From Desulfobacteraceae bacterium (GTDB lineage: Bacteria > Desulfobacterota > DSM-4660 > Desulfatiglandales > B25-G16), in the NCBI GenBank assembly GCA_030615105.1, contig JAUWZV010000001.1:1399-65398 (forward strand): a stretch of 64,000 nt of DNA. The letters are read 5' to 3'. Each line of letters opens with the position of its first letter. The stretch's first letter is position 1. Made by a program: the position numbers and the translations under genes. The notes under the pieces are model-generated. The model was given only the letters and a program-made list of their open reading frames with translations. It was not told the DNA's origin and searched no databases. Shown here one piece after another: positions 40,279-57,536 of the stretch.

Positions 40279-40697
40279 GGTTATTTGTTATTCGAGTAAC
40301 GAACATGCTCAATAAAGTGTGGAAAATGTAGGGTCGGCCTGCCCTGGCGCGAATTGCCTGAAACCTGCTGTCGTCACTGTAATATTTCGCAAACAGAAGT
40401 CGTAGAAATCAAACATTGTAAATCAGGTCTGGGCCAGGGGTTTTATACCCGACCTTAAAAAGGTGGCCCGCCACTGAACTTTGGCGGACCACCCTACATT
40501 TGTATGTTGGTTCAGTTTTTATAACAGACAATAAGTCCAAAGGATATCGAGCAGTTACCGAATAACTAATAGAAGGATTCCTAAATACGCTTGTAGTAGA
40601 AAAAGTCATTGCGATTCTCACGAATGCGGGACTCGCAATGACGGATAGAATAGAATATTATTTTGGAAGTGGACTACTAATAACGAATAACAAATAA
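40279..40697. repeat. nested inverted-repeat composite (contains an R2 module at 40336-40440 and a GTCATTGCGA...TCGCAATGAC hairpin)
   Basis: Outer inverted repeat GTTATTTGTTATTCG (40279-40294 / 40683-40697). The inner 40301-40565 is homologous to 57226-57536. AAATGTAGGGT pairs with ACCCTACATTT. Confidence 0.6.
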
Positions 40698-40720
40698 CAT
40701 AAATAGACTTTTCTATTAAA

Positions 40721-41197
40721 ATGAAGATTGGAGTTATTTCAGATACCCACCTAAAAAATGTGAATCCCCAGCTAATGGATATTTATCAGGATTATTTCTC
40801 TGATGTGGATATGATTATCCATGCGGGAGATCTTGTTTCCATAGAAATAGTTGATTTTTTAAGCCAGAAGCCCCTCCATGTAGTTCAGGGGAATATGGAC
40901 AGTTTGGATATAAAAGGGAGGTTTCCTAAAAAAAAGATAATAGAGGCAGGCGATTTCCGCTTGGGATTGATCCATGGATGGGGGTCCCCGTTTGGACTAG
41001 AAAGGAGGATAAGATCTGAGTTTAATGATGTCCATGTCATTATTTACGGCCATTCTCACAGGCCGGCTAATCACATTAATAAGGGAATTATTCTTTTTAA
41101 TCCAGGAAGTGCTACTGGTTTCAGTATCTCTGGATCCCATTCGATTGGGATCTTGGATATAAGGGACACAGTAAAGGGTAATATAATTACACTTTGA
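40721..41197 (+). CDS. YfcE/MJ0936-family metallophosphoesterase
   Basis: ISDTHL, HAGD, GNMD, IHGW and GHSH metal-ligand motifs in 158 aa. Confidence 0.8.
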   Translation: MKIGVISDTHLKNVNPQLMDIYQDYFSDVDMIIHAGDLVSIEIVDFLSQKPLHVVQGNMDSLDIKGRFPKKKIIEAGDFRLGLIHGWGSPFGLERRIRSEFNDVHVIIYGHSHRPANHINKGIILFNPGSATGFSISGSHSIGILDIRDTVKGNIITL

Positions 41198-41206
41198 GGT
41201 TAAATA

Positions 41207-41686
41207 ATGAAGGTTCTTTGGGCGCCATGGCGGATGGAATATGTAAGTTCTGATAATAACGAAGGGGAATGTATATTTTGTACAGGTGATGAAAGGAGTC
41301 AGGATGAAAGGAGGTTAATTTTATTTATTGGAAACCGTAGCATTGTTCTTATGAACAGGTTTCCTTATATAAATGGCCATCTTTTGATAGCCCCATTGCG
41401 ACATGTTTCCACTTTAAATGCCCTATCACCAGAGGAGAAACTCGACCTAATAACAATGGTTGAGAAATCCATTGGGGTTTTAAAGGAGGTTATGAATCCA
41501 GAGGGATTTAATGTAGGTTTAAACCTGGGAAAGATAGCAGGGGCCGGAGTTGAGGATCATATCCATTTCCATGTTGTTCCTCGGTGGAACGGGGATACTA
41601 ATTACATGACTGTATTTGGAGAAGTAAGGGTCATTCCGGAACATATTCAGGCGACTTATCGAAAATTGTTACCTTTTTTCAAATAA
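41207..41686 (+). CDS. HIT-family protein
   Basis: Histidine triad HIHFHVVPRW; C.FC motif near the N-terminus. Confidence 0.8.
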   Translation: MKVLWAPWRMEYVSSDNNEGECIFCTGDERSQDERRLILFIGNRSIVLMNRFPYINGHLLIAPLRHVSTLNALSPEEKLDLITMVEKSIGVLKEVMNPEGFNVGLNLGKIAGAGVEDHIHFHVVPRWNGDTNYMTVFGEVRVIPEHIQATYRKLLPFFK

Positions 41687-41730
41687 TTTTAGACACGATA
41701 AAGTGTTTTTAAAGAATTTAGGAGGATGTT

Positions 41731-42084
41731 ATGAAACATATAAAGGCTATTATAAGTATATTAGTGATGTTGCTGATCGTAATACTTATTGTTGAGAACC
41801 TTGGAGAGTTATCCAAGACATTGACCCTTAAAGTAGATTTACTTTTTTGGGACTGTAAAACCCCACCAATGCAATTCTATTTGGTTATTATAATAGTGTT
41901 TCTGCTTGGTATTCTTATAGCCGGTTTTTACGGTATAGTTGAACGCTTTAAATTAAAGAAGGAGATAAGGATAATTTCAAAGGCCAATAGGGAGAAAGAC
42001 AAGGAACTGAACTCTTTTAGAAACCTACCTATTGTTGAAAGTAAGATAGAGGATAAAGGGCCAGCAGGAGGAGATCAGGATTAG
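41731..42084 (+). CDS. LapA-like (DUF1049) inner-membrane protein
   Basis: Two TM segments plus a coiled C-tail, directly upstream of lapB. Confidence 0.55.
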   Translation: MKHIKAIISILVMLLIVILIVENLGELSKTLTLKVDLLFWDCKTPPMQFYLVIIIVFLLGILIAGFYGIVERFKLKKEIRIISKANREKDKELNSFRNLPIVESKIEDKGPAGGDQD

Positions 42085-42121
42085 GGTCTGATTGGCGGGA
42101 AGAGATTAGGTTACCTTCAGG

Positions 42122-43324
42122 ATGTGGGAAGAAATCAAATATTGGTTTTTTGATCTACAGGGTTTTGGGTTTGGCATCTGGTTGATTTTTGCCTTTGTAG
42201 CCGGTCTACTTGTAGATAGGTTTATTAGGTCCAGGGGTGCTAAAAAGCTTAGGAGAAAGCTGGATAAGGGAGATAAGGCCTTCTTTAAGGGTATTCAATA
42301 CATACTTTCCAATGAGCCAGATCAAGCAATTGAACAATTCACAAAGTCGGTTCAGATTAACTCAGATACAATTGAAACCTATGTTGCTTTGGGTAATCTT
42401 TATAGATCTAAGGGTGATATTGAGAGGGCTATAAGGATAAGACAGGGAATAATTTTAAGACCCAGTCTGGACAAAAAGATAAGGTTTAGGGCAATTTTTG
42501 ATCTCGGTTTAGATTACAGGAAGGGTGGTTTTTTAAATCGTGCTCTATCAGCCTTTCAGGAGGTTCTGGAAAGTGACCCGAACAATATTGAGGCCCTTGA
42601 GCAGATCGAGCGAATTTATGAAGATGTCTATGATTGGGAAAAGGCCTTTAAAACTCGGCAGGCTATCTCAAGGCTTGTAAAAGGGGATCACCGGCATATC
42701 CTGGCCCACCACCAAACAGAGCTTGGGAAGCAGCAAGAGAAGAATGGTGATATTTTAAGGGCTGAGAAATCTTACAAAAAGGCCATCTCTATCTTTGATA
42801 AATGCGTTGATGTCTATCTTCATTTAGGCGATCTTTATTTTAGTCAGAAAGAGCACAAAAAGGCTTTATCTACATGGAGGAGGGTAATTGATGTGGCACC
42901 TCAGTTTACTTTTCTTGCCTATCAAAGGCTGGAAACGGCTTACTCAAGGATGAAAAACCTTAAGCCTGTAGAAGATTTTTTACGAGAGTCTGTCAGAAAA
43001 AATTCTGATGGCTTTACCCATTTAGCCCTGGCCAGATTCCTCTTCAGCAAGGGAGAGATAGATTCTGCCCTGGATGAATTGAATCAGGCTATTAAATTAG
43101 ATCCCTCCTTTTTTGATGCCAGGAAATTTATGGGGGAGATACTTTTAGAAGAAGGCAGAAATGAAGATGCCTTAGAGGCCTATAAAGATCTTCTCTTATC
43201 CACCGTAGGTGAGCCTTATTTAAAATTTCAATGTAGCAATTGTGGATACAGACCAGACAAACTTGTCTGGAAGTGCCCACAGTGCCTGAAATGGGATTCA
43301 ATAAATACTATAGAGCCACCCTGA
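42122..43324 (+). CDS. lapB: lipopolysaccharide assembly protein LapB (YciM)
   Basis: N-terminal TM, TPR repeats, and a C-terminal rubredoxin-like CSNCGYRPDKLVWKCPQCLKWDS. Confidence 0.8.
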   Translation: MWEEIKYWFFDLQGFGFGIWLIFAFVAGLLVDRFIRSRGAKKLRRKLDKGDKAFFKGIQYILSNEPDQAIEQFTKSVQINSDTIETYVALGNLYRSKGDIERAIRIRQGIILRPSLDKKIRFRAIFDLGLDYRKGGFLNRALSAFQEVLESDPNNIEALEQIERIYEDVYDWEKAFKTRQAISRLVKGDHRHILAHHQTELGKQQEKNGDILRAEKSYKKAISIFDKCVDVYLHLGDLYFSQKEHKKALSTWRRVIDVAPQFTFLAYQRLETAYSRMKNLKPVEDFLRESVRKNSDGFTHLALARFLFSKGEIDSALDELNQAIKLDPSFFDARKFMGEILLEEGRNEDALEAYKDLLLSTVGEPYLKFQCSNCGYRPDKLVWKCPQCLKWDSINTIEPP

Positions 43325-43396
43325 TTTATCTAATGGTAATGTGCCTTCTTAAATCTCTGCATTTCCCTTCTTTTATTGTAATTACTCAGGTATCTT

Positions 43397-43739
43397 GCCA
43401 CAAAGGCACCAAGACCCGCCCGCCTCGCCTAAGGCGAAGCCGATGGCGGGCAGGCAACAAGATTATAGAATTATTCTTTATAATAGCCTTTTTAATGCGC
43501 CTCAGGCGCATTAATGCGTGGCACATTGAAATTAATGAGCCTAAGGCTCATTAATAAGAAAACTCCGTTATTCAATTTATATTCATCTTCCCCGCCTGCC
43601 GTCCGTCGGGCAGGTCTTTGGGTCCCTGGCCCAGACCTGGCTTGTAATGAATTTATATATAGAATTCATCTGATAAATAATGCAGCGCCCATATGATATT
43701 CAAGCACTTGCGCCAAGGCGGGCTTTGTGCCTTGGTGGC
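43397..43739. repeat. repeat nest between lapB and gap
   Basis: Flanked by GCCACAAAGGCACCAAG (43397-43413) and CTTTGTGCCTTGGTGGC (43723-43739). It contains the R1 palindrome 43415-43455, hairpins TAATGCGCCTCAGGCGCATTA and TTAATGAGCCTAAGGCTCATTAA, and the R2 module 43624-43723 (reverse). Confidence 0.55.
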
Positions 43740-43756
43740 TGAATAGTTACGTCCTG

Positions 43757-44764
43757 TTAATCTAAGCTTTTTGCAATGTATACAGCAAGATCTACAAGCC
43801 TGTTTGCATAGCCGAATTCATTATCATACCACCCAAGAACCTTTACCATATCATCCCCTATAGTCATTGTTGATAGGGCATCCACAACAGTGGAGGCAGT
43901 AATTCCATTGAAATCAATGGAAACAAGTGGCTCATCAGAATATTCAAGAATACCCTTCATGCTACCCTTAGAGGCCTCTTCAAAGGCCCTATTTACCTCT
44001 TGAGCAGTGGCAGGTCTACTTAGCTGGACAACAAGATCGGTTAAAGATACATTGGGTGTGGGAACCCTTAAGGCCATCCCATTCATCTTGCCAGCCAGTT
44101 CAGGAATAACCAGGGAAACTGCCTTTGCCGCTCCTGTAGTTGTAGGGATCATGGAAACAGATGCTGCTCTGGCCCTTCTGAGGTCCTTGTGGGGAAAATC
44201 GAGAAGCCTCTGATCTGTAGTATAAGAATGTATTGTTGTCATAAGGCCTTTTTCAATCCCAAAACTGTCTAACAAAACCTTACAGATCGGGGCCAGACTA
44301 TTTGTCGTACATGATGCATTTGAAATGATATCATGATTCTTTGGATCGTACTGTTTATGATTGACCCCGATTACCAGGGTTATATCAGGATCTGTGGCTG
44401 GAGCCGAAATGATAACCTTTTTAGCCCCAGCATCTAAATGCTTAGAGGCCTGGGACCTGTCTCTGAAAAGTCCTGTAGACTCGAGAACTATATCTACACC
44501 AAGATCCTTCCAGGGAAGCTTACCAGGGTCCTTTTCCGAGATAACTCTTATCCTCTTTCCATTAACTATAATATTATTCTCATCTACTTTAATTTCAGCC
44601 TTGAGTACTCCATGAACTGAATCATATTTAAGAAGATGGGCAAGGGTATTAGGATCTGTAAGGTCATTTAGGGCTAAGAATTCAATATCATCCCTTGTGT
44701 ATGCTGCACGGAGAACCATTCTGCCTATACGCCCAAAACCATTAATCCCTACCTTTACTGTCAT
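43757..44764 (-). CDS. gap: type I glyceraldehyde-3-phosphate dehydrogenase
   Basis: MTVKVGINGFGRIGR; SNASCTTNSLAP active site; WYDNEFGY. Confidence 0.95.
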   Translation of the reverse strand: MTVKVGINGFGRIGRMVLRAAYTRDDIEFLALNDLTDPNTLAHLLKYDSVHGVLKAEIKVDENNIIVNGKRIRVISEKDPGKLPWKDLGVDIVLESTGLFRDRSQASKHLDAGAKKVIISAPATDPDITLVIGVNHKQYDPKNHDIISNASCTTNSLAPICKVLLDSFGIEKGLMTTIHSYTTDQRLLDFPHKDLRRARAASVSMIPTTTGAAKAVSLVIPELAGKMNGMALRVPTPNVSLTDLVVQLSRPATAQEVNRAFEEASKGSMKGILEYSDEPLVSIDFNGITASTVVDALSTMTIGDDMVKVLGWYDNEFGYANRLVDLAVYIAKSLD

Positions 44765-44840
44765 GACTGCCTCCTCTTTATAGTATGCAGTAAAAAGTAA
44801 GCAGTATATAGTGCCTGCTCCTTACTGTATACTGCCTACT

Positions 44841-45251
44841 TTATTTCTCTTGTGTTGGTGTAAGTAGCTCGCTCGCCAGAGAAATGCTTCTTTTTCCTGC
44901 GGTCTTTGCCATATCTGCTATTTCTGCTAAGCTGTGTCCTTCCCTATGATGGGCAATGGCTATTACCATAGGTAAATTTATGCCTGTTACGATCTCAACT
45001 ATGTTTTTTTGAAGAAAAGACAGGGCCAGATTTGATGGTGTCCCTCCAAACATGTCTGTCATAACAAGAACACCTTGCCCTTGATTCAGAGAGTCTATTT
45101 TTTTCTCGATCATATCTCTTAATTTTTTGGAATCCTTCATGGCATCAATGGAAATGCACTCAACAGACTCCACAGCCCCCACAATAAATTCGGCTGCCTC
45201 GAGGAGTTCTTTTGCTAACTGCCCGTGAGTTATAATAAGCAAACCGATCAT
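44841..45251 (-). CDS. PTS EIIA component, mannose/fructose family
   Basis: MIGLLIITHGQLAKELLEAAEFIVG N-terminus with the phosphorylatable His. 136 aa. Confidence 0.75.
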   Translation of the reverse strand: MIGLLIITHGQLAKELLEAAEFIVGAVESVECISIDAMKDSKKLRDMIEKKIDSLNQGQGVLVMTDMFGGTPSNLALSFLQKNIVEIVTGINLPMVIAIAHHREGHSLAEIADMAKTAGKRSISLASELLTPTQEK

Positions 45252-45259
45252 TAAAAAAG

Positions 45260-45721
45260 TTAAAACTCCTCATTCTTATCTATTATAATCTCATAGATCT
45301 CTTCCCTGGATTTTGCGCTCATCAACCGCCACCTAAAATTACCATCTTTTAACATCCTTGATATCTTGGCCAGGGCCTTCAGGTGCATACCAGCTGAATT
45401 CTCAGGTGCAAGCAAAAGAAAGAGAAGATATGCAGGTTTTTCATCTATGGAATCAAAATTCAGGCCATCAGTGCTTCTGCCAAAAGAGATTAGGAGTTTA
45501 TTCAATCCCTTTAATTTTCCATGAGGCAGAGCAATCCCATCGCCTATGCCAGTGCTTCCCAGCCTCTCTCTCTCTAAAAGAACCTGAAGTAAAGACCCTT
45601 TATTTAAAGAAGTCTCCTGCTCGGTTATAATCTGTGTGAGCTCTTCCAAAACCCCTTTTTTATCATGAGCCCTCAGATCAGCGATAATAAACTGTGGTTT
45701 AAGTATTTCTGAAAGTTTCAT
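45260..45721 (-). CDS. ptsN: PTS IIA-like nitrogen regulatory protein PtsN
   Basis: GIGDGIALPHGK motif. Positioned downstream of rpoN-hpf. Confidence 0.8.
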   Translation of the reverse strand: MKLSEILKPQFIIADLRAHDKKGVLEELTQIITEQETSLNKGSLLQVLLERERLGSTGIGDGIALPHGKLKGLNKLLISFGRSTDGLNFDSIDEKPAYLLFLLLAPENSAGMHLKALAKISRMLKDGNFRWRLMSAKSREEIYEIIIDKNEEF

Positions 45722-45739
45722 TCCCTTACCCTTGATTAG

Positions 45740-46282
45740 CTATTTAGTAGAGGTTTCAATAAGACCTAAATTCCCATCTTTTCGTTTGTAGATAACGTTA
45801 ATATTTTTAGATTTAGAATTAGTAAACACAAGAAAATTTCCTTTTGATAACTCCATTTGCATTGCCGCCTCATTTACATCCATAGGTTTTACATCCACTC
45901 TTTCTGTCTTTATTATCTTAGGATCCGATTCATCTTGCCTTTCTTGGGTTTCTATCTCACCATTTAAGAAATCCCCACCTTTAATATCCTCCAATTTATA
46001 TTCCCTTTTTCGAGAGAGCATGCGCCTGAGCTGCACCTCTATCTTATCCATTACCTGATCAATAGACGAATACATATCACCACTCTCATCTACAGCCTTA
46101 ATCTTGTTTCCATCAATAGATAAAGCCACGTCAGCAATGTGCCTAAATTTTTCTACCTTAAGAACAATATGGGCCTCAACAGGAGAATCAAAGTACTTCT
46201 TTACCTTATAAACCTTTTCCTCTACATATGACTTTAATTCTTCTGATGGTTCCATATGCCTAAAAGTAAAAGATATCTCCAT
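45740..46282 (-). CDS. hpf: ribosome hibernation-promoting factor, long form
   Basis: MEISFTFRHMEPSEELKSYVEEK N-domain plus a C-terminal dimerisation domain (FLVFTN...INVIYKRKDGNLGLIE). Confidence 0.85.
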   Translation of the reverse strand: MEISFTFRHMEPSEELKSYVEEKVYKVKKYFDSPVEAHIVLKVEKFRHIADVALSIDGNKIKAVDESGDMYSSIDQVMDKIEVQLRRMLSRKREYKLEDIKGGDFLNGEIETQERQDESDPKIIKTERVDVKPMDVNEAAMQMELSKGNFLVFTNSKSKNINVIYKRKDGNLGLIETSTK

Positions 46283-46421
46283 TCTATCCTCCTTAAAAAA
46301 GATGAATTCTTAACAAAAAAAAATCTGAAAGTCAAACATCGATCCTGACTAGATGTCTTCGTAACCCAAGATCTTAACATTTGTGTCAAGTTTTGCAATT
46401 AAAGCAAGTGCTGATGACTTT

Positions 46422-46592
46422 AAATTCGAAATCCTAAGCACGAAATACGAAACAAATCCGAATTACCAAAATTCCAATGTTCTAAACCATGAGACTTTTC
46501 TTTGAGCAAATAACACTTTGTGATGTTTCGAATTTTGAACATTTGAAATTTAGATATTGTTTCGAGTTTCGATATTCGAATTTAGGATTTTC
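46422..46592. repeat. AT-rich MITE-like inverted repeat between rpoN and hpf
   Basis: Left arm 46422-46488 (AAATTCGAAATCCTAAGCACGAAATACGAAACAAATCC...) is roughly complementary to right arm 46526-46592 (...GTTTCGAGTTTCGATATTCGAATTTAGGATTTTC). Confidence 0.55.
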
Positions 46593-46662
46593 TTACGGCA
46601 TGCCTCGTCGGTTTGACCCCGAGTTTTGCTAACTAAAAAGCTAAAATAATAAATCAGCAAGC

Positions 46663-48111
46663 CTATCTATAAGTATTCTTTCTTTGATTCGATGGAAGGA
46701 TTCTAAGCATCTCCCTATACTTGGCCACGGTCCTGCGGGCTATATCTATATTTGATCGCTTTAAAATATTAACTATCTCCTGATCACTAAAGGGTTTGGA
46801 CTTGTCTTCAGCCCTGATTATCTCCTTAAGCCTCTCCTTAACGCTCAAAGAGGCCACTTTATCCACTCCATCAACTGATTGGATACCACTATTCAAAAAA
46901 TATTTTAACTCCAAAACACCAAAAGGGGTATACATATATTTGTTATTCATGACCCGGCTTATAGTTGATTCATGCATCTGAATATCTTCAGCTACATCTC
47001 TCAAAACCATTGGTTTCAAATGCGCTGCTCCAAACTCAAAAAAGTCTTTTTGTAACTTAACAATGCTCTCTGTGGCCTTATAGATTGTTTTCTGCCTTTG
47101 ATGAATGCTTTTGATAAGCCAGGAGGCGCTCTTTAGCTTATCCCTAATATATTCCCTCGTAGCCCTGGATAGATCATCTTTCTTAACGAGTGTCTCTTTA
47201 TAGAATGCACTGATTCTTAATTTGGGAAGGCCGTCATCATTTAAAACAATGCGGAACTCATCCCCCATTTTATAGACGTAAACATCAGGGGTTATATATA
47301 TAGTTTCCTCATCATTATAGAAACGACCTGGTTTAGGCTCCAAAGAGGCTATAACAGATACAGCATTTAAAACCTCCTCCAATGAAACTTCCAGATTTTT
47401 AGCAATCTGGTGGTATCTTTTTTTCTCCAATTGCTTCAGATGATCAGTCAAGATTTTTTCTACTGTACTCCCCATCAGATTCTGAAAACGTAGCTGAATC
47501 AAGAGACATTCCTTGGTATCTTTTGCCCCGACACCAACAGGATCAAGCTCGTGTATAATATCCAGTACCTTTAAGATCTCCTCTCTTGATCGATGGGTAG
47601 ATAGGATAATATTATCAATAGATGTCTTAAGATAGCCATCAGAGTCAATGTTGCCAATAATGTATCTCCCGATCTCCTTCTGCACTTCATCAAGATCGCT
47701 GAGTTGTAATTGCCACATAAGATGGGAGTAAAGATTTGTTTTAGGAGAAATTAAATTCTCAAAGGATTGTTGTCTGTCTTCTGCACCTTCATTGGGTGAG
47801 CTTGCCCATGCTGTATTATATTCTGAGATGTATGCCTCCCAATCGAAATCATCCCTTAGTGTCTCTTTAATTGTTACCTCTTTTAGGGGCTCTTCTTTGA
47901 TAGATTCTTCTTTCTTTTCCTCTTCTGGCAATCTTTCCTCTGTCTCATCACCTGGAACCTCCTCCAGTAATGGATTGATCTCCATCTCGTGATTCACTGT
48001 CTGACAGAGCTCCAGTCTGGAGAGTTGTAAAAATTTGATGGCCTGCTGCAGCTGGGGCGTCATTATTATCCGCTGGACCATCTTGAGTGATTGTCTAAGT
48101 TCAAGTGCCAT
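46663..48111 (-). CDS. rpoN: RNA polymerase sigma-54 factor
   Basis: MALELRQSLKM...TPQLQQAIKFLQLS N-terminus. C-terminal RpoN box ARRTVAKYRE. Confidence 0.95.
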   Translation of the reverse strand: MALELRQSLKMVQRIIMTPQLQQAIKFLQLSRLELCQTVNHEMEINPLLEEVPGDETEERLPEEEKKEESIKEEPLKEVTIKETLRDDFDWEAYISEYNTAWASSPNEGAEDRQQSFENLISPKTNLYSHLMWQLQLSDLDEVQKEIGRYIIGNIDSDGYLKTSIDNIILSTHRSREEILKVLDIIHELDPVGVGAKDTKECLLIQLRFQNLMGSTVEKILTDHLKQLEKKRYHQIAKNLEVSLEEVLNAVSVIASLEPKPGRFYNDEETIYITPDVYVYKMGDEFRIVLNDDGLPKLRISAFYKETLVKKDDLSRATREYIRDKLKSASWLIKSIHQRQKTIYKATESIVKLQKDFFEFGAAHLKPMVLRDVAEDIQMHESTISRVMNNKYMYTPFGVLELKYFLNSGIQSVDGVDKVASLSVKERLKEIIRAEDKSKPFSDQEIVNILKRSNIDIARRTVAKYREMLRILPSNQRKNTYR

Positions 48112-48939: not shown

Positions 48940-49043
48940 CCCTGACCCAGAACTGGTTTACAAGGTTTTAGTTATATTGCTTTCACTTCCGAAGTAATAC
49001 AACTACAAGATAATATTCCTGGCAATTCGCGCCAGGGCGGGCC
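48940..49043 (-). repeat. R2 module (reverse orientation)
   Basis: CCCTGACCCAGAACTGG ... GGCAATTCGCGCCAGGGCGGGCC. Confidence 0.5.
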
Positions 49044-49320: not shown

Positions 49321-49956
49321 TCATTCTTTTCCTTTTTCCTCCTTAGGGAATAGAGTGGCCTTGACCCTTTTCGTTTCACCCCCCTCAATTATAATCCGAT
49401 TTTCATTTAAAAATATAATTATACGGTGCCCCTCTACAAAATCTGGACCTTGTTGGATAATAGGATTTTCTGTAAGCACAACCTTGTCCTCATTCTGATA
49501 AAAAACTGCCTTCCCTGCCCGGGCCACACCACCATCAGAGCGATTAATAATAACATCTCCTAAGGCAATAATCTTATCTATCCTGCTGGATTCTACACTG
49601 GATTCATTTTTAGCGGAGTTATCAAGATAGTATACAATCATCTTCTGGCAATTTACCACCATATCTTCTCTTCTGGCCCTGACCTTACCTTCAAATACAA
49701 TTAACCTTTTTTTCTGATCAACCTCAAGGCTATTTGAGTGGATAATAATAGGGCTCTTTGAGGAGATCTTTTTGGATGCCTGGCTTACCCTGTTAGAATA
49801 CCCCTTGTCTGGGGACGGGGCGGATTCACACAGGGTATAATGTCCCCTGTTAAATCTAACAGGGTTTGCTTTAGAAAAGGCGCTGATTTGAGGAGGTACC
49901 AGAAAAACAAAGAATATGATTACACTAAAAGAAAAAATAGAAAGTAAAATCCTCAT
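49321..49956 (-). CDS. lptA: LptA-like (OstA-domain) periplasmic LPS transport protein
   Basis: Signal peptide. A repetitive beta-jellyroll-like sequence (LVFEGKVRA...QKMIVYY...). Positioned between lptC and lptB. Confidence 0.7.
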   Translation of the reverse strand: MRILLSIFSFSVIIFFVFLVPPQISAFSKANPVRFNRGHYTLCESAPSPDKGYSNRVSQASKKISSKSPIIIHSNSLEVDQKKRLIVFEGKVRARREDMVVNCQKMIVYYLDNSAKNESSVESSRIDKIIALGDVIINRSDGGVARAGKAVFYQNEDKVVLTENPIIQQGPDFVEGHRIIIFLNENRIIIEGGETKRVKATLFPKEEKGKE

Positions 49957-50525
49957 CTATCAAAAACCCCACCCATAACGGTTGTACAAACATTTTTCTT
50001 TACTGTAAATTTCTCCCTTTTTAGGTCAATATAAAGACCATTTCCATTGACCTCAAAGAAAGGACCAATTATTTTTATAGATTTATCTGTTTCCACAGAT
50101 TCATCTTTCTGTCTATAGATTAAAAGGCTTGTTTCTATCTGGTAGCCGTTAGCAGACCTCCCAATCACATCCCCTTTTAAGATAATTTTCCCACTCTCCC
50201 TGAAATAATCACCTTCGTTTCCTTTTATGGTAAAAGAGTTCTTTTCAATAGAGTCTAATTTTAAAAAAACATCCTTTAAAGTCACAATCTGCCTTTTGTT
50301 AAAAAAATGGGCCTCTTTTGCCTTAAGCTCCCATTTTCCTTTGCCATTTTTATAATCCTGGCTATATTTGATATCGGAAATTTTAAGGGATTCTCTGGGT
50401 ATCAAATTGGATGTTGTTGAGGAAACCATAACTAAATAGGGTACCTTAAAGAGAAAAAAAGCGGTTATAATTAATAGTAAAAAAATACCTGCTACCGGCC
50501 AAATTATTATAGGAACTTTTTTCAT
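49953..50525 (-). CDS. lptC: LptC-like LPS export protein
   Basis: Single N-terminal TM segment, 190 aa. Its stop overlaps the lptA start by 4 bp (49953-49956). Downstream of kdsA. Confidence 0.6.
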   Translation of the reverse strand: MKKVPIIIWPVAGIFLLLIITAFFLFKVPYLVMVSSTTSNLIPRESLKISDIKYSQDYKNGKGKWELKAKEAHFFNKRQIVTLKDVFLKLDSIEKNSFTIKGNEGDYFRESGKIILKGDVIGRSANGYQIETSLLIYRQKDESVETDKSIKIIGPFFEVNGNGLYIDLKREKFTVKKNVCTTVMGGVFDR

Positions 50526-50682
50526 AAATTATACCAACTAAAATGCCTAATGCCTAAAGTTATAGGTGCCTAAAGTTTAAATAGAAAAAATGATTTGACT
50601 GCTCGAGTTAACATCATTATTTACTTTAAGATAATATTGTGTTTCTCCTCCATAACTTTAGCTCACTTTAGATCACTTTAAA

Positions 50683-50783
50683 CCCTGGCCCAGACCTGAT
50701 CTATAGGTTTAATAGTCTAATTCAAGCACATACTGGCATATAGACTTGATAGGCTGTTTATATCACATCGTACCAGGGCGGGC
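50683..50783 (-). repeat. R2 module (reverse) overlapping the 3' end of kdsA
   Basis: CCCTGGCCCAGACCTG ... CGTACCAGGGCGGGC. The last codons and stop of kdsA (KARPGTM*) are encoded inside the repeat terminus. Confidence 0.55.
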
Positions 50784-51641
50784 TTTAGTCACTTTCTCCC
50801 TAACTAACCGGTGTATTTTCTTAAGTGTATTAAGAAGGGGTTCAACTTGCTCAAATGGAAGAGAATTTGGACCGTCAGAGAGGGCTGAATCAGGATCTGG
50901 ATGGATCTCCAAAAAAACTCCGTCAGCACCAGCGGCTACAGCTGCCCTTGCAAGAGGAGCAACGAATTGTCTCTGCCCACCGGATGACTTACCCCGGCCT
51001 CCAGGTAATTGTACACCATGGGTGGCATCAAAGACAACCGGATATCCAAGATTCTTCATAACAGATAAAGATCTCATATCCACAATAAGGTTATTGTAAC
51101 CAAAGGATGTTCCTCTTTCTGTTAATAAAATGCTGCTATTGCCCCCTGATACAGCCTTTAAAACAACCTGCTCAATATCCCAGGGAGAGAGGAATTGCCC
51201 CTTTTTTATATTTATTGGTAAACGAGTTCTGGCTGCCTCTAATATTAAATCTGTCTGGCGGGATAGAAATGCAGGAATCTGAATAATATCCAAAATCTCT
51301 GCTGCTTTCCCGATCTCACTCACCTGATGTATATCTGATAGAATTGGCAAACCCATGGTATTCTTTACCTCTTTAAGAATCTCCAATCCTTCATTCAAAC
51401 CCGGACCCCTAAAGGACTCGATTGATGTGCGATTGGCCTTATCATAAGAACTCTTGAAGATTACTGGAATTTTCACCCTTTGTGCTAATCCCTTTAAAAA
51501 TCTCGCCACCTTAAGAGTTAGCTCTTTATTCTCTATCACACATGGACCGGAGATCAAAAATAGAGGGCCGTTCCCGCCAACTGTCAAGTCTCCTATCTTT
51601 ACCCGGCTGGATACCTTTATTTTTCCATTTTCAGCAACCAT
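50763..51641 (-). CDS. kdsA: 3-deoxy-8-phosphooctulonate synthase
   Basis: FLISGPCVIE, FKSSYDKANR, IIQIPAFLSRQTDL, FDATHGVQ. Confidence 0.9.
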   Translation of the reverse strand: MVAENGKIKVSSRVKIGDLTVGGNGPLFLISGPCVIENKELTLKVARFLKGLAQRVKIPVIFKSSYDKANRTSIESFRGPGLNEGLEILKEVKNTMGLPILSDIHQVSEIGKAAEILDIIQIPAFLSRQTDLILEAARTRLPINIKKGQFLSPWDIEQVVLKAVSGGNSSILLTERGTSFGYNNLIVDMRSLSVMKNLGYPVVFDATHGVQLPGGRGKSSGGQRQFVAPLARAAVAAGADGVFLEIHPDPDSALSDGPNSLPFEQVEPLLNTLKKIHRLVREKVTKARPGTM

Positions 51642-51742
51642 ACTATTTAGCTTTATAAATACAGTATCTCTGAATTTCTATATCTTATTGAAATCACAGT
51701 ATTTTTAGTAGTGCCTGATTTATGCCGACCACATGGAATGAT

Positions 51743-51846
51743 GGCCCGCCCTGGCGCTACTTGCCTGGAAAAAGCTATTACCGCTTTAACATCTTGTAAG
51801 CGAAGCCTGCAGAATTCCGGTCTTGCAAATCAGGTCTGGGCCAGGG
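51743..51846 (+). repeat. R2 module
   Basis: GGCCCGCCCTGGCGCTACTTGCCTGG ... AATCAGGTCTGGGCCAGGG. Confidence 0.55.
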
Positions 51847-51951
51847 AGTGCCTGCCCTGTTAAATAGGGTTTTATTGAAATATGCCATCATTATGCTCCT
51901 TAGATTGTCTTAAAATATGAGCGTTTAAAAGCTCATATTTAACGGGGTAAA

Positions 51952-52083
51952 AGTACTGGAATAGTGAATAATAAAAATTGAATATTGATAATTGTCAATT
52001 GAATATTAATGTTGGAAATTCACAATTGTCAATAGTCATTCGATTGAACCCATCACTCCAGTATTCCATTACTCCAATTGGGG
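51952..52083. repeat. inverted-repeat element related to 9310-9422
   Basis: CCAGTATTCCATTACTCCAATTGGGG (52058-52083) is the complement of the ATTGGAGTAATGGAGTACTGG motif at 9310. The interior has AATTGTCAAT repeats. Confidence 0.5.
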
Positions 52084-52249
52084 AGAAGCCCCTTAAATTT
52101 TATTTTATTGTTATCCAAAGAAATAATAAAGTCAAGAATCCCTTTTTTATTTTCACAGTTTTAATTTTTTAAAAAACTTTAGATAAACTTCTTCTTGTAA
52201 AGATAAAAGGATTTTCATATAGTGACCACAATTTTGTGAGATTTGTAAT

Positions 52250-53419
52250 ATGGCTAAGCATAAGGTGAAAAAGACAATCGATGAAATAAACAGGCGGATA
52301 AAAGAGGGTAAAGTAGTGGTGGTTACCGCCGAAGAGATGGTAGGCATAGTAAAGGAAAAGGGCCCTGAAAAAGCCGCAAAGGAGATTGATGTAGTTACAA
52401 CTGGAACCCTTTCCCCAATGTGCTCATCAGGAGCCTTTATTAACTTTGGACAGAGTAAACCACCTATCAAGGCATATCAGGTCACCCTAAACGGTGTTCC
52501 TGCCTATGCCGGACTTGCTGCTGTAGATATATATATTGGTGCCTCTGAACCGATCATGGATGATCCATTAAATAAGGTCCACCCAGGTCAGTTCAAATAT
52601 GGTGGCGGACACGTTATCGAAGATCTGGTGTCTGGTAAAAAGGTGGAATTAATAGCTAAGTCTTACACAACAGACTGCTATCCAAGTAAAGAAATAAAAA
52701 AGCAAATAAGACTATCAGATCTACCTTATGCAGTTTTACTCAATCCCAGAAATTCCTACCAGAACTACAATTGTGCTATAAACATGAAGGACGAAACGAT
52801 CTATACCTATATGGGCGTCTTGAGACCTAAGGCCGGTAATGTGAACTATGCAACAGCTGGTCAGCTAAGCCCACTCCTTAATGATCCTTACTGCCTGACT
52901 ATAGGTCTAGGGACCAGGATTTTCCTTGGAGGCACGCAGGGATACATAACATGGGCTGGCACCCAGCACAATCTGTCAGTTAAGAGAGGAAAAAATGGGG
53001 TCCCCTTAGAACCAGGTGCAACATTAATGGTGATGGGCAATTTAAAGGAGATGAATCCACGATGGTTAGTCGGGGTGAGTATTCTTGGGTATGGATGTTC
53101 CTTAGCTGTAGGTATGGGTTTACCGATTCCAATCCTCAATGAGGATATGGCAAGGTACACAGGTGTCTCTGATGAGGATATCTTCACCCAGATTATTGAT
53201 TATGGAAAAGACTATCCCCAGGGAAGGGCCAAAAGTCTCGGCGAGGTAAGCTATGCGGAATTGAAAAGCGGGACAATAACCCTGAATGGCCAGAGTATAC
53301 AAACCGCGCCAATGTCCTCTTATGTGAGGGCTAAAGAGATTGCGGAGATCCTTAAAGAATGGATTCAAACAGGTCATTTCTATCTTAGTCATCCTCAGCA
53401 CCTCCTCAAGAATATGTAA
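52250..53419 (+). CDS. DUF39 (COG1900) homocysteine-biosynthesis-type protein
   Basis: KTIDEINRRIKEGKVVVVTAEEM N-terminus and overall pattern typical of the methanogen-type DUF39 family, recalled from memory. No fused ferredoxin domain. Confidence 0.7.
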   Translation: MAKHKVKKTIDEINRRIKEGKVVVVTAEEMVGIVKEKGPEKAAKEIDVVTTGTLSPMCSSGAFINFGQSKPPIKAYQVTLNGVPAYAGLAAVDIYIGASEPIMDDPLNKVHPGQFKYGGGHVIEDLVSGKKVELIAKSYTTDCYPSKEIKKQIRLSDLPYAVLLNPRNSYQNYNCAINMKDETIYTYMGVLRPKAGNVNYATAGQLSPLLNDPYCLTIGLGTRIFLGGTQGYITWAGTQHNLSVKRGKNGVPLEPGATLMVMGNLKEMNPRWLVGVSILGYGCSLAVGMGLPIPILNEDMARYTGVSDEDIFTQIIDYGKDYPQGRAKSLGEVSYAELKSGTITLNGQSIQTAPMSSYVRAKEIAEILKEWIQTGHFYLSHPQHLLKNM

Positions 53420-53508
53420 ATAATTCCAATTAAGAATTCTTAAACAAAGGAGAACAAGGCTTCTCCACTCATGCCAAATATTTCCTGCCAGAAAAACAAG
53501 GATTTTAT

Positions 53509-54312
53509 ATGTCAGTGACTAAAAATAGGAAGCTGAAAAATATTTTAGATGCCATGGGATCTGTGCTTATCGCCTTTTCAGGCGGTGTTGATAGCACCCT
53601 CCTCCTTCATGTAGCCTCCGAAATACTGAAAGAAAAGGTAAAGGCAGCTACCTTCATCTCCCCAATCTTTCCAAAGAATGAAATTGTCAGGGCAGAAAAT
53701 TTTACCAGTAGATTAGGGATAAATCATATAAAGATCAAATTTGATATACTTTCCAATAAAGATTTTCTTAAGAATGATGGCATGAGGTGTCATTTCTGTA
53801 AACTAACAATGATTAAGGAGTTAAAAAAAGAGGCAAAAAAGTGCGGCCTTGAATATATAATCGATGGGAGCAATCTTGACGACATGAAAGATTACCGGCC
53901 TGGTCTGAAGGCAGCACACAAATCAGGCATAAGAAGTCCCTTGCTGGAGGCTGGCTTTACAAAAGAAGATATAAGAAAAGAGGCGAAAGAAAGGAAGATA
54001 GACCTCTGGAATACGCCATCTTCTGCGTGCCTGGCCTCAAGGATTGCCTTTGACACGTATATAAAGGGAAAAGACCTATGCATGATAGAGAGAGGGGAAG
54101 AATTTTTGCATCAGCTTGGTTTTAGAGAAGTAAGGGTACGCTATCATCCTCCTATTGCCAGGATCGAGGTCTCAAGGGAAGAGATTTTACGATTGGCAGA
54201 ATTACCTATCAGAGATAAAGTGGTTGAGAACCTTAAGGAACTCGGTTTTAAATATATCACCCTGGATCTTTCTGGCTACAGGACTGGAAGTATGAATGAT
54301 CTACTTTCTTAA
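53509..54312 (+). CDS. PP-loop ATP-utilising enzyme, LarE/TIGR00268-like sulfur transferase
   Basis: AFSGGVDSTLL PP-loop. C-terminal LGFREVRVRYHPPIARIEV is typical of this family. Confidence 0.75.
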   Translation: MSVTKNRKLKNILDAMGSVLIAFSGGVDSTLLLHVASEILKEKVKAATFISPIFPKNEIVRAENFTSRLGINHIKIKFDILSNKDFLKNDGMRCHFCKLTMIKELKKEAKKCGLEYIIDGSNLDDMKDYRPGLKAAHKSGIRSPLLEAGFTKEDIRKEAKERKIDLWNTPSSACLASRIAFDTYIKGKDLCMIERGEEFLHQLGFREVRVRYHPPIARIEVSREEILRLAELPIRDKVVENLKELGFKYITLDLSGYRTGSMNDLLS

Positions 54313-54608
54313 CCCTACCCGCCATAAGCGGATCATCCTTGCCCTATGAGGTCCATATTTCACCGGGGTTCAACTACTCTACCGTTGCGAGGATTAAAAT
54401 ATTTCATAGACTTAAATCACAATTACTTAATTTATGAATATTAGTTGACATTTGCTTGAATATTCAATAGTTATTTTTAGTGATCACAATTTAACCATCA
54501 AAATGGCTCTTGATTGGAAATTATAAAATATTAAAAAAAATGCCAGTGCGATATCTGCCTTATTATATCCTTACTTAGATATAAAGGATTAATTTAAGGA
54601 GAATAGAC

Positions 54609-55583
54609 ATGATAATTGAATGTGAGAGATGCCACACTAAATTTAACCTTGATGAAAATCTTCTGAAAGAAATCGGCTCAAAGGTTAGATGCTCCATCTG
54701 CAAACATGTATTTACTGCCTTTCCGCCCAAAGCAGAGCCTGAGATTGAGGAAGTCCCAATTAAGGAAACAGAAAAGACAATGATCTTAACCCCTGAAGAG
54801 ATTCAGGAAAAGCTTGGTCAGGAAGAGGAAGGGATAGAAGCAGTATCTTTTGAAGATTTAGCTGATTTAGAGGAAGGCCCTGTAGAGGTGGAGGGAGAGG
54901 AGAAGATAGATATCGATGAGGCAATAGATAGGGCAACAAAGCTTGAACAAGAAATTATAGCCCAAAAGGAATTGGAAAGCAAAGAAGAGATAGAAGAGGA
55001 AAAAGAGCCAGTTAAGCCCCGCCCGATTATTAAAAAAAGGCGAAGATCAAGATTATTGATCACAATTTTGATAATCATTCTTTTACTTGTTGGGGCTGTA
55101 GCTGCCTTGATTATGTTTAAACCAGATTTACTATCAGAATACATTCCTTTCCTTAAAAAACCCCTATCTAAAGAACAGGTCTTTGACATGGGAAACAAAA
55201 GACTATCCTTTAAAGATTTAAAGGGTTCTTTTGTTAATTCTGAAAAACTCGGCAAGCTCTTTGTGGTTACAGGTTTAGTAACAAATAATTACCCAGATAA
55301 AAGGAGTTTTATCAGGGTCAGATCCAATATCCTGGATCCCAAAGGTAAGGTAGTTAAAAGCAAAATTAACTATGCTGGAAACCCAATAATTGATAAGGAA
55401 CTGCAATCCCTGTCTATGGAAGAGATAAATAATCGGCTAATGAATAGATTCGGCAAAAATAAGATGAATACAAATATCCTTCCTAACTCTTCCATTCCTT
55501 TTATGATTATTTTTAGCGACTTACCTAAAGATATAAGCGAATTTACTGTAGAGGCGATAAGTTCTTCACCTGCTAAAAAGTAA
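54609..55583 (+). CDS. MJ0042-type zinc-ribbon protein with acidic linker, TM segment and DUF3426-like C-domain
   Basis: MIIECERCHTKFNLDENLL...VRCSICKHVF, then an E-rich region, then a TM segment (LLITILIIILLLVGAVAALIMF). Confidence 0.7.
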   Translation: MIIECERCHTKFNLDENLLKEIGSKVRCSICKHVFTAFPPKAEPEIEEVPIKETEKTMILTPEEIQEKLGQEEEGIEAVSFEDLADLEEGPVEVEGEEKIDIDEAIDRATKLEQEIIAQKELESKEEIEEEKEPVKPRPIIKKRRRSRLLITILIIILLLVGAVAALIMFKPDLLSEYIPFLKKPLSKEQVFDMGNKRLSFKDLKGSFVNSEKLGKLFVVTGLVTNNYPDKRSFIRVRSNILDPKGKVVKSKINYAGNPIIDKELQSLSMEEINNRLMNRFGKNKMNTNILPNSSIPFMIIFSDLPKDISEFTVEAISSSPAKK

Positions 55584-55713
55584 GCTGCCTAAAAAATCCT
55601 CATGTCTAAAATCGACAGATTTTTAGACACTCCAGTTCTCTTCCCCAGAGAGATTTATATTTTATTTAGAATCAAACAGAAAATATTATTAAGTAGATGA
55701 ATGTGCAAACAAG

Positions 55714-55923
55714 GTGATTTTACCCTATAGGATCGGCGGCCGAAGAATGGCCCAAGCGATTTTAAGACCAGCGGTTAGCGACTTTCTAGAGGCTGCCATC
55801 CATGACCACAGCTTTGAACTCAACATTGAGGAAATAATGGTCGGGAAGGACTCGCATCTCAATAACCTTACCTTGGTCGACTCTGGTATTAGGCAGGAAA
55901 AGGAGGCGGGATGCTTGATCTAA
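55714..55923 (+). pseudogene. possible RCK/TrkA-C domain gene fragment
   Basis: GGRRMAQAILRPAVSDFLE...[28 protein letters not shown] resembles the N/C-domain junction of TrkA-type proteins. It is only 69 codons long and overlaps the serS start. Confidence 0.35.
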
Positions 55924-57191
55924 AGTTTGTTCGGTCTAACCTTGATCTAATAAACGATATGCTCAAAGACAGGGGTTATGATCTTGATCTTTCCGGATTT
56001 CAGTCTCTGGATAAGAAGAGGCGATCTATCCTGACCAGTCTTGAAGAGCTCAGGTATAGGCGTAATAAAGTTTCTGACCAGATAGCGGTTATGAAAAAAA
56101 GTGGAGAAGATGTATCATCCCTTATCTCTGAGATGAAGGCTGTCTCCAAAGAGATAAAGGAGATTGAGGCTGAACTACCTGATATAATGGATCAGTTGAA
56201 TAGGCCTTTTATGCTTATCCCTAATATCCCACATGAATCAGTGGTTGTTGGTAAGGATGCCGATGATAATCCGGTTATTAGAAGGTGGGGAAAGATTAGG
56301 GACTTTGATTTTAACCCTCTTCCCCATTGGGAGATAGGAGAGAACCTCAATATCCTTGACTTTTCCCGGGCAGCCAAGATTGCAGGGAGTAGATTTTCTC
56401 TTCAGAGTGGTTTGGGTGCCAGATTAGAAAGGGTGCTGATCAATTTTATGCTCGACATTCATACCAATAATCATGGTTATACTGAAATCCTTCCCCCATT
56501 TCTTGTTAACTCCATTAGCATGACAGGAACAGGTCAATTACCAAAATTTAGAGAGGATCTGTTCAAGGTGGACGGTTGGGACCTTTTTCTCATTCCTACG
56601 GCAGAGGTACCGGTTACCAATATACACAGGGATGAAATCCTATCCTTTGATGAACTTCCCATCAAGTATGTCTCCTATACCCCATGTTTTAGGTCAGAGG
56701 CAGGCTCTTACGGTAAAGACACAAGAGGGCTTATCAGGCAACACCAATTTAATAAAGTGGAGCTGGTTAAATTCTGCTGCCCTGAAGATTCAGACCAGGA
56801 ATTGGAGTCCTTAACTACCGATGCGGAGGAGATTTTACAGCGTCTGGAGCTTCCCTACAGAGTAGTTTCACTATGTACAGGTGATCTTGGATTTTCTGCT
56901 GCTAAAACCTATGATATTGAGGTCTGGCTCCCGGGACAGCAACTATTTAGAGAGATATCCTCTTGCAGTAACTTTACAGACTTCCAGGCCAGAAGGGCAA
57001 ATATTCGCTTTAGAAGGAAAAAGGGGAGCGGTACAGAACTCGCCCACACCATTAACGGCTCAGGCCTGGCAGTTGGAAGAACTTTTGTGGCAATCTTGGA
57101 GAATTATCAGCAGCCTGATGGAACCGTGGTTATTCCAGAGGCACTAAGACCATACCTGAATGGGCTATCCGTTATTAAGAAGGAGGGTTGA
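55911..57191 (+). CDS. serS: serine--tRNA ligase
   Basis: [10 protein letters not shown] coiled-coil arm. Class II motifs [32 protein letters not shown]. Confidence 0.95.
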
Positions 57192-57225
57192 GGGGGAAAA
57201 ATTGAAACTGGATAAACGAAATAGG

Positions 57226-57536
57226 GAACATCCTCAATAAAGTGTGGAAAATGTAGGGTCGGCCCGCCCTGGCGCGACAATTCTGGGTATTTGATATCGG
57301 TATCATTATTTGTAGGGTATCAATACCAAATAACCAACTTTCAATAAGAGGTCTGGGCTAGGGGTTTTATACCCGCCCGCCTCGCCTGAGCGAGAGCGAT
57401 GGCGGGCAGGCCCGACCTTAAACAGGTAGCATATTAATAAGCCTAAGGCTTATAAAATGCCACCCTACATTTGTATGTTGGTTCAGGTTTTATAACATAC
57501 AATAAGTCCACAGGATATTGAGCAATTACGAAATAA
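57226..57536. repeat. composite repeat homologous to 40301-40565 (contains R2 module 57261-57364 and R1 palindrome 57372-57412)
   Basis: Shared scaffold: CTCAATAAAGTGTGGAAAATGTAGGGTCGGCC, GGGGTTTTATACCC, GACCTTAAA, CCACCCTACATTTGTATGTTGGTTCAG.TTTTATAACA.ACAATAAGTCCA. The interiors differ. Confidence 0.6.

Follow-up and report, generated by a model that had tools for sequence, protein, structure and literature searches.

Two mosaic repeats in a Desulfobacteraceae genome are probably copies of one 145-nt miniature transposable element carrying smaller repeats inserted into it

How can two intergenic repeats of about 300 bp share a conserved frame and differ almost completely in between? The question is raised by a 64,000-nt stretch of the genome of a Desulfobacteraceae bacterium (GCA_030615105.1, contig JAUWZV010000001.1, positions 1,399 to 65,398; hereafter the window, in whose numbering coordinates are given), in which the two regions begin at 40301 and 57226. 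An earlier note on this DNA had described them as composite elements with swapped cassettes and had left two explanations side by side, namely, repeats inserting into the loops of other repeats or a structured element with exchangeable modules. We conclude, with a probability of roughly 85%, that the two regions are copies of one 145-nt transposable element of the miniature inverted-repeat kind (MITE), referred to here as the scaffold, and that their internal differences are secondary insertions of smaller repeat families. The scaffold family and at least four companion micro-repeat families, which belong to an uncultured, sulfate-reducing Desulfobacteraceae lineage, are previously undescribed.

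The common frame is real and far above chance. Alignment of the two regions revealed a left shared block (40301–40352 and 57226–57277; 52 nt, 96% identity) and a right one (40489–40565 and 57460–57536; 77 nt, 91% identity), as well as short internal blocks (AGGTCTGGGCyAGGGGTTTTATACCC and GACCTTAAA). When shared-block probes were counted in the window against chance expectation, those of 19–22 nt from the left and right blocks had exactly two matches each, versus 0.02 and 0.00 expected. The true limits of the elements are 40301–40558 for copy 1 (258 nt, plus strand) and 57226–57529 for copy 2 (304 nt, plus strand), and each is bordered by an 8-bp direct repeat with one mismatch. Around copy 1 these octamers are CGAGTAAC (40293–40300, plus strand) and CGAATAAC (40559–40566, plus strand), a 7/8 match, and the same pair surrounds the orthologous copy at L009 (L numbers designate the recovered loci); around copy 2 they are GAAATAGG (57218–57225, plus strand) and GAAATAAG (57530–57537, plus strand), again a 7/8 match. 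The pairing of the scaffold ends noticed earlier, AAATGTAGGGT with ACCCTACATTT, is present, but the true terminal inverted repeats, GAACATGCTCAATAAAGyGTGGA and GTAATTGCTCAATATCCTGTGGA, which match at 16 of 23 positions, lie outside it.

The basic form of the scaffold is found at L028/L035, where a minimal copy of 145 nt (GAACATGCTCAATAAAGCGTGGAAAATGTAGGGTCGGGTTTTATACCCGACCTTAAACAGGTGGCATATAAAATGCCACCCTACATTTGTATGTTGGTTCAGGTTTTATAACATACAATAAGTCCACAGGATATTGAGCAATTAC) contains no inserts. It has imperfect inverted ends, GAACATGCTCAATAAAGCGTGGA ... TCCACAGGATATTGAGCAATTAC, enclosing three hairpins, and the end motif, which would also be expected of any parent insertion sequence, is GAACATGCTCAATA...GTGGA. 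Folded as single-stranded DNA, the 145-nt copy reaches −34.5 kcal/mol, compared to −12.4 ± 2.5 for shuffled sequences (z = −9.0); in the predicted structure the inverted repeats form outer stems of 9 bp and 5 bp, followed by an AATGTAG/CTACATT stem and the three hairpins. An exact scan with CCACCCTACATTTGTATGTTGG of one genome per species returned six loci, all in the metagenome-assembled genome (MAG) Desulfobacteraceae bacterium CSMAG_2422, and a left-end scan of metagenomes returned 21 matches on 20 contigs. The 31 full or partial copies recovered in total belong to a single Desulfobacteraceae MAG, to related contigs from metagenomes and to the window, which itself holds two. Pairing of left and right ends across ~250 kb (the window and the recovered loci) yielded 23 complete elements, corresponding to 18 distinct loci after merging of samples. 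These elements measure 145–513 nt, contain no open reading frame (ORF) of note and lie beside genes that are unrelated from copy to copy. Across the frame, 136–145 of the 145 positions are identical (129–130 in the lineage of copy 1), with a mean column identity of 96%.

The scaffold duplicates its target. An 8-bp target-site duplication with at most one mismatch is found at 15 of the 18 distinct loci (nine perfect and six with one mismatch, the latter including both window copies), versus only 0.09% of control 8-mer pairs taken at other offsets around the same elements. An insertion can also be compared with its empty site. At L002/L016 the element sits between a gene for a 316-aa protein and one for a 345-aa ferredoxin-like protein, and the filled site reads ...atcaGATAAGGT[MITE]GATAAGGTgacc... 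(in a longer reading of the right flank, GATAAGGTgaccaatg). In the relatives L037, L041, L042 and L043, with 89% amino-acid identity, the same two genes are 8 nt apart and a single GATAAGGT is present, the empty site reading ...atcaGATAAGGTgatc... within atcaGATAAGGTgatcaatg. Within the duplicated octamer are the stop codon of the upstream gene and the greater part of the downstream ribosome-binding site; because the duplication regenerates both, this intra-operon insertion is tolerated. By every testable criterion except an identified parent insertion sequence, the scaffold is a MITE.

Alignment to the minimal copy separates the frame of each window copy from its contents. Copy 1 consists of a frame of the 145-nt type, one 102-nt element of a family that we call F2 and a variant second hairpin. 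Its left arm (40301–40337, plus strand) contains the left terminal inverted repeat and TGTAGGGTCGG. The F2 copy, F2a (40338–40439, 102 nt, plus strand), is nested at GGGTCGG^GTTTTATA, the junction at which the 5' stem of hairpin 1 passes into its loop. The second hairpin (40462–40493, plus strand) reads GGTGG-CCCGCCACTGAACTTTGGCGGA-CCACC, with a small CCCGCC...GGCGG palindrome in place of the usual CATATAAAATG loop, a variant shared with L009 and L010, and the right arm (40494–40558, plus strand) comprises hairpin 3 together with the right terminal inverted repeat, whose last letters are TTAC. In copy 2, 142 of the 145 frame positions are the same as in the minimal copy, and three inserts occupy sites 35, 45 and 62–66: the F2 family member F2b (57263–57363, 101 nt, plus strand), in the same site as F2a; the GC-rich imperfect palindrome R1 (57372–57410, 39 nt, plus strand), nested at TTTATA^CCCGACC in the 3' stem of hairpin 1; and a 19-nt palindrome, TAATAAGCCTAAGGCTTAT (57435–57453, plus strand), nested in the loop of hairpin 2. 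Both the extra R1 palindrome of copy 2 and the two differing sub-terminal hairpins had been pointed out before, and both are there.

The same positions are occupied throughout the family, and only two of about 21 recovered full copies are free of inserts. Site 35–37, the hairpin 1 junction, holds F2 or a derivative of it in 20 copies: near-identical F2a copies are found in L001, L006, L024, L025 and L026, and a shortened F2b in L002, L003, L005, L016–18, L022, L030 and L032–33. Site 45 contains an insert in four copies. Its occupant is the 39-nt R1 in copy 2, L023 and L018/L031, and the same R1 variant is also present in L005/L032, where the insert has a 96-nt form in which R1 holds two further small CCTGCC...GGCAGG palindromes. 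The hairpin 2 loop, GGTGGCATAT^AAAATGCCACC (site 62–66), carries the 19-nt palindrome in approximately ten copies, and rarer inserts are found in the scaffold linker and in hairpin 3.

Orthologous loci differ by the presence or absence of such inserts. The locus of copy 1 is represented on four contigs, and on one of them, L009, the MITE occupies the identical position, between the same octamers and with the same lineage markers, as a 156-nt element without F2, reading GGGTCGGGTTTTATA where the window has GGGTCGG[102 nt]GTTTTATA. In three orthologous pairs, what occupies site 35 is the only difference: copy 1 and L009; L001, which has F2, and L020, which does not; and L004, which has a 234-nt block, and L034, which lacks it. 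In the L004 block, an F2 harbours both a 30-nt palindrome, P30, and a second F2, the latter at AATCAG^GTCTGGG; this F2-in-F2 arrangement also occurs in L027 and uses a site other than that in the scaffold. Similarly, L005 and L002 have the 19-nt palindrome and their respective counterparts L032 and L016 lack it; L002 and L016 also differ by one tandem inner unit. The earlier suggestion of repeats inserted into the loops of other repeats is borne out by the insert-free 145-nt frames, by orthologous loci differing by single inserts (copy 1/L009, L001/L020, L004/L034 and L005/L032) and by the occurrence of the inserts on their own elsewhere in the window. Nesting is three to four levels deep, with P30 in F2, F2 in the MITE and the MITE in a segment flanked by inverted repeats.

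Composites of this kind recur. The combination P30+F2a+F2c is found at three loci, L004 (target-site duplication with one mismatch), L027 (perfect) and L023 (none), and F2a-bearing scaffolds at six or more loci. The insert block could alternatively spread between scaffold copies; given these recurrences, however, the composites most probably continue to transpose as units, and the sub-families sharing a 'cassette' are therefore related by descent, not by swapping. In this respect the term swapped cassettes was misleading, since a module, once added at its fixed site, is passed on when the composite transposes. The recurrent module order, for which a genome-wide census had been proposed, does exist, but it reflects the fixed insertion points.

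The most conspicuous insert family is F2, a 102-nt element with the ends CCYGCCCTGGCGCGA and CAGGTCTGGGCCAGGG and a family length of 99–103 nt. Mean pairwise identity is 94% in the ends and 50% in the interiors. The ~75-nt interiors of the GCCCTGG...CCAGGG modules had been described as completely different, and for the two scaffold-borne window copies they are indeed no more similar than shuffled sequence; the modules themselves are not unrelated, both being members of this one end-defined family. A consensus RNA fold of 12 F2 copies retains only the terminal CCCTGGC/GCCAGGG stem and displays no covariation, and folds of single copies are mostly unremarkable (z from +0.3 to −2.9). The left flank ends in RG at 16 of 16 distinct sites and the right flank begins with a purine at 15 of 16; around solo copies, neither a target duplication nor a consensus beyond this bias was found, and several flanks 'echo' at an offset of 3–4 nt. 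Seven F2 copies are present in the window, two in scaffolds and five solo, and more solo copies in the recovered loci. The solo copies of the window are located at 40118–40249 (102 nt, plus strand; it bears a P30 at 40126–40155, and the segment is missing in L009), 43624–43722 (99 nt, minus), 48940–49041 (102 nt, minus), 50683–50782 (100 nt, minus) and 51745–51846 (102 nt, plus). The fourth of them overlaps the end of the DAHP synthase ORF (50763–51641, minus strand): its final six codons (ARPGTM) and its stop codon lie within the 5' end of F2 (50763–50782), suggesting that the insertion probably replaced the native C-terminus of the enzyme. As a separate observation, one and the same flank, TTGTCAGGTTCAAG, precedes an F2 5' end in differing contexts (L013/L014/L015 and L003), a recurrent junction, and the F2 elements of L013 and L015 are 272 nt long with unrelated DNA inside.

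The smaller inserts also have lives of their own. R1, represented by 15 recovered copies, combines a 10-bp stem, which includes one C.A mismatch, with a loop that varies. Outside scaffolds there are three in the window and eight in the other loci; those of the window are solo copies at 43415–43454 and 63298–63337 (both plus strand) and one at 61486–61520 (minus strand) inside another, TA-flanked MITE-like element. P30 (CCCCGTCCCGAGrCCGGTACGGGATCGGGA) was located 13 times, in all 13 cases at GCCCT^GGCGCGA in the F2 5' end, and its bearers span three F2 lineages that share only 7–9 nt to the right of the insertion point. Independent site-specific insertion most likely explains this distribution, because ordinary gene conversion would need more than 7–9 nt of homology and because repeated precise loss would be favoured by direct repeats at the flanks, which are absent. 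Outside scaffolds, the 19-nt palindrome has relatives at 43492–43514 and 43532–43554. Palindromes of this group, 19–23 nt long, have a constant CCTNAGG centre and TTAAT/ATTAA ends (window 43492–43554 and 57435–57453; L001 and L027) and vary by matched changes in the two arms (GCGCC/GGCGC, GAGCC/GGCTC, AAGCC/GGCTT); one of them, in L027, is bordered by a duplicated (A)TTAA.

We propose that a transposase acting in trans, presumably of the DDE type, would move the MITE by an 8-bp staggered cut at AT-rich intergenic targets. F2, R1 and the 19-nt palindrome would then insert secondarily at fixed points of the MITE hairpins, F2 would in turn become a target for P30 and for other F2 copies, and the composites would remain mobile and spread as units, giving rise to sub-families with the same cassette content. 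The inner elements may home into hairpins or single-stranded DNA by means of a system resembling that of repetitive extragenic palindromes (REPs) and their REP-associated tyrosine transposases (RAYTs), or another site-specific system; alternatively, gene conversion between the very similar scaffold copies may have distributed them, F2 and R1 inside scaffolds included. We regard as rather unlikely the further proposal that F2, the CCYGCC...GGCAGG palindromes including R1, P30 and the 19-nt TTAAT..GCCTNAGGC..ATTAA family constitute a hierarchy of duplication-free homing micro-elements and not passive products of recombination. If it were true, each element would home to one position in the hairpin of another repeat, driven by a Desulfobacteraceae machinery that targets hairpins or single-stranded DNA or is guided, and F2 would carry P30 and F2c as passengers.

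That the inner modules are not independently mobile today, and that the mosaics result from homologous recombination or gene conversion with some palindrome slippage, like bacterial interspersed mosaic elements (BIMEs), is in our view unlikely, although a number of events do bear the mark of recombination. The scaffold arms, with ~96% mean column identity, offer ample homology; the 234-nt P30+F2a+F2c block was gained or lost in a single step between L004 and L034; L023 lost a duplicated GTCTGGGCCAGGG, L002 lost one of the two tandem inner units of L016, the shortened F2b is joined at a TGTAGGGT microhomology, and all scaffold-borne R1 copies have the same loop variant. However, F2, R1 and the 19-nt palindrome family also occur solo in unrelated intergenic DNA and have thus spread without scaffolds, P30 enters three F2 lineages at the same nucleotide despite their scant 3' identity, F2 is nested in F2 at a different site in L004 and L027, and copy 1 has kept its lineage markers (TTAAAAAGG and the variant hairpin 2) within 20 nt of F2. 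Another kind of recombination would be involved if F2 were an attC-like integron site or other recombinase site and its variable interior a captured cassette. The conserved, imperfectly inverted ends, the variable centre and the near-constant length of 99–103 nt recall such sites, but the F2 ends, read directly, have no RYYYAAC or GTTRRRY core sites, the ~70-nt interior is too short for a gene, and the elements are scattered singly in intergenic DNA or nested in MITE hairpins, not arrayed by an integrase; we give this account virtually no credence.

The other alternative raised by the earlier note, a structured element with exchangeable modules, would make the scaffold a structured non-coding RNA gene or a cis-regulatory leader. 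Its predicted RNA fold is indeed very stable (−57.7 kcal/mol, z = −7.9), and each window copy is situated upstream of the next gene and points the same way, an arrangement seen in 12 of 16 copies overall. Yet the target-site duplications together with the empty and filled site indicate inserted DNA, the neighbouring genes are unrelated between copies, and the 102-nt F2 insert keeps nothing but its terminal stem. The window from 39800 to 64000 has no match in Rfam 15 at the gathering threshold or at E < 5, and no sigma-70-like promoter or intrinsic terminator was found within either window element. Among 21 distinct frames, compensatory changes affect none of the 45 predicted pairs and most stem substitutions break pairs; substitutions at the paired positions are indistinguishable from a shuffle control, a test with little power in this case because the MITE family is young, and one that lends no support to a selected fold. 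We consider the RNA or regulatory reading very improbable, and the notion of exchangeable modules found no support in these comparisons. Most likely, the elements are selfish DNA with only incidental effects on neighbouring genes.

Several results weigh against the interpretation of the two regions as a MITE with secondary insertions. The target-site duplication is missing at three of the 18 loci (L017, L018 and L023). For copy 2, relatives with 91–92% amino-acid identity lack the element, but their intergenic DNA is unalignable and provides no clean empty site; for copy 1, the relatives L007 and L008 lack a larger block of ~330 nt and not the MITE alone. Neither a transposase gene nor an autonomous element with matching ends was found in ~290 kb (window and loci), where a search for a parent insertion sequence (ends with ≤5 mismatches, ≤4 kb apart) returned only MITE copies, the longest of 513 nt. 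The inner elements F2, R1 and P30 have no unambiguous target duplication, with 0–3 bases being ambiguous at their borders because of runs of G or C, and the recurrence of inserts at identical sites could come from gene conversion or precise loss. With respect to the gene on the right-arm side, 12 copies are co-oriented and four opposed, which is not significant, and some selection is possible. As to the machinery of the inner elements, a tblastn search of the window and loci for RAYT/Y1 transposases, a weak test with an IS608 TnpA query, produced nothing below E = 2.6.

In its small size, lack of coding capacity, terminal inverted repeats, fixed-length duplication, stable predicted fold, position between genes, dispersal in many copies, and orthologous sites both empty and filled, the scaffold resembles bacterial MITEs, such as Nezha of Nostocaceae, Chunjie of Geobacter uraniireducens, Correia/NEMIS of Neisseria and RUP of pneumococcus (reviewed in PMC3184786). 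It differs from them in that no parent insertion sequence with matching ends was found and in that most copies carry nested elements. The scaffold sequence has no match in a literature string search (chance hits only), in Rfam or, with the 145-nt query, among the PLSDB plasmids.

There are also likenesses to palindromic repeats. BIMEs are mosaics of GC-rich imperfect palindromes and short motifs; neither they nor REPs and REPINs (REP doublets) are known to make target-site duplications. REPs measure 20–40 nt and often adjoin a conserved GTAG/CTAC. In the repeats described here, GC-rich imperfect palindromes and short motifs likewise follow a recurrent order, and R1, like a REP, is a dispersed intergenic GC-rich imperfect palindrome. 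The scaffold core, TGTAG-GGTCGGG...CCCGACC ... GGTGGCAT...ATGCCACC-CTACA, resembles an inverted doublet of the REP type, with GTAG plus a hairpin followed by a hairpin plus CTAC. Unlike REPs, REPINs and BIMEs, however, the scaffold has terminal inverted repeats and an 8-bp duplication, and because of this duplication it is not a REPIN. The inner elements F2, R1 and P30, with no clear duplication, are compatible with a REP/REPIN-like nature. REP and REPIN elements are known from enterobacteria and pseudomonads (PMC3116915), and REPs are known insertion targets of other mobile elements (PMC3184786). In a number of our copies (L016, L030, L025, L018, L032/L005 and L027) an inner unit consisting of hairpin 1, the linker, hairpin 2 and CTACATCTAGATGTTGAATTGG is duplicated in tandem. 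The normal right arm of the MITE (CTACATTTGTATGTTGGTTCAGGTTTTATAAC) resembles this unit, which suggests that the MITE core arose by tandem duplication of a REP-like hairpin.

The closest analogue of tiny site-specific repeats nested in repeats is provided by the small dispersed repeats (SDRs) of heterocystous cyanobacteria. SDRs nest in one another. Here, too, tiny and apparently mobile repeats target specific short sequences or palindromes inside other repeats; the differences are the phylum, the unrelated sequences, the nesting over three to four levels and the host element, which in our case is a classical MITE with terminal inverted repeats and target-site duplication. One of the cyanobacterial repeats, SDR5, possibly inserts into the HIP1 palindrome, according to Elhai et al. 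(2008) as quoted in PMC5861425. With conserved terminal modules and variable internal content, the scaffold also recalls the modular boxA-boxB(n)-boxC structure of BOX in Streptococcus pneumoniae (PMC3184786), but in BOX the copy number of one module varies, whereas the internal modules described here are separate families that exist alone too. Thus, the organisation is less unusual than had been claimed, mosaic and nested small repeats being known in other bacteria. The remaining interest lies in the multi-level nesting of 19–102-nt elements at fixed sites without duplication.

The genes of the window are of the common housekeeping type and include those for PurD, a Metallophos_2 phosphoesterase, a HIT protein, GAPDH, DAHP synthase, seryl-tRNA synthetase and an M20 peptidase, and their orthologues are found in MAG CSMAG_2422, in a second MAG (GCA_030606925.1) and in metagenome assemblies. 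Gene content and repeat style had at first suggested a host of the Methanosarcina type, with an archaeal promoter in the right arm of the scaffold, but this reading was rejected because all related loci proved to belong to Desulfobacteraceae MAGs and metagenomes. In these 64 kb there are seven F2, four R1 and two MITE copies, and further repeats were encountered near them. Copy 1 is enclosed in a longer segment that has the inverted repeat GTTATTTGTTATTCG/CGAATAACAAATAAC at its ends (40279–40293 and 40684–40698). The closest relatives, L007 and L008, lack this block entirely (~330 nt in the form it has in L009), so that MITE copy 1 may itself sit inside a further element. This block contains a GTCATTGCGA...TCGCAATGAC hairpin that recurs elsewhere, and just upstream, at 40264–40277, the window has a 14-nt stretch with the palindrome CCGTTAACGG that is not in L009 (GTTAT[CCGTTAACGGTTAT]TTG). 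At 43413–43722, five small repeats form a BIME-like cluster in one intergenic region, in the order R1 (43415–43454), the two relatives of the 19-nt palindrome (43492–43514 and 43532–43554), a CCTGCCGTCCGTCGGGCAGG palindrome (43595–43614) and F2 (43624–43722). For dating R1 and F2 at this place, 43325–43800 was compared with L007, but synteny ends after the TPR gene, leaving no comparison.

A MITE-like element of ~170 nt at 61452–61622 has perfect 11-bp inverted ends, TAGTGAATGAC ... GTCATTCACTA, with TA on each side, and carries the R1 at 61486–61520 along with two other hairpins. It is missing in the orthologous spacer of L014 (CCTA^ATCTAAGG), and a related copy is present in L011. The spacer between the M20 peptidase and short-chain fatty acid (SCFA) transporter genes of the MAG (L011, 5237–5430) contains an insert of ~190 nt that is found neither in the window nor in L014. 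It starts with GAACAT, has the core TGTAGGGGTTCGA...TCGAATCCC...CCCCTACA and carries CCYGCC...GGCAGG palindromes nested in a hairpin loop; it seems to represent a second scaffold family built on the same plan. A 291-nt segment is present twice, 20 kb apart, at 16504–16794 and 36748–37038 (98% identity), and a 128-nt part of it recurs at 10001–10128 (~90%). Its copies lie in or beside ORFs (16312–16836 and 35095–37080), and its origin appears to be a recent duplication or conversion of part of a gene, with no relation to the MITEs.

For annotation, the implication is that the region should not be labelled as an RNA gene or regulatory element, because the odd 'modular' repeat is ordinary mobile DNA. 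Repeats this dense are probably one reason why short-read MAGs are fragmented: the species-representative MAG yielded only six exact matches, on contigs of 5–33 kb. Presence or absence of inserts at orthologous loci provides useful strain markers, and the insertion at L002/L016, in an 8-nt gap within an operon, illustrates how tightly packed genes can accommodate such elements. Finally, the strict site choice of the tiny palindromes makes this Desulfobacteraceae lineage a tractable case for the movement of elements shorter than 100 nt.

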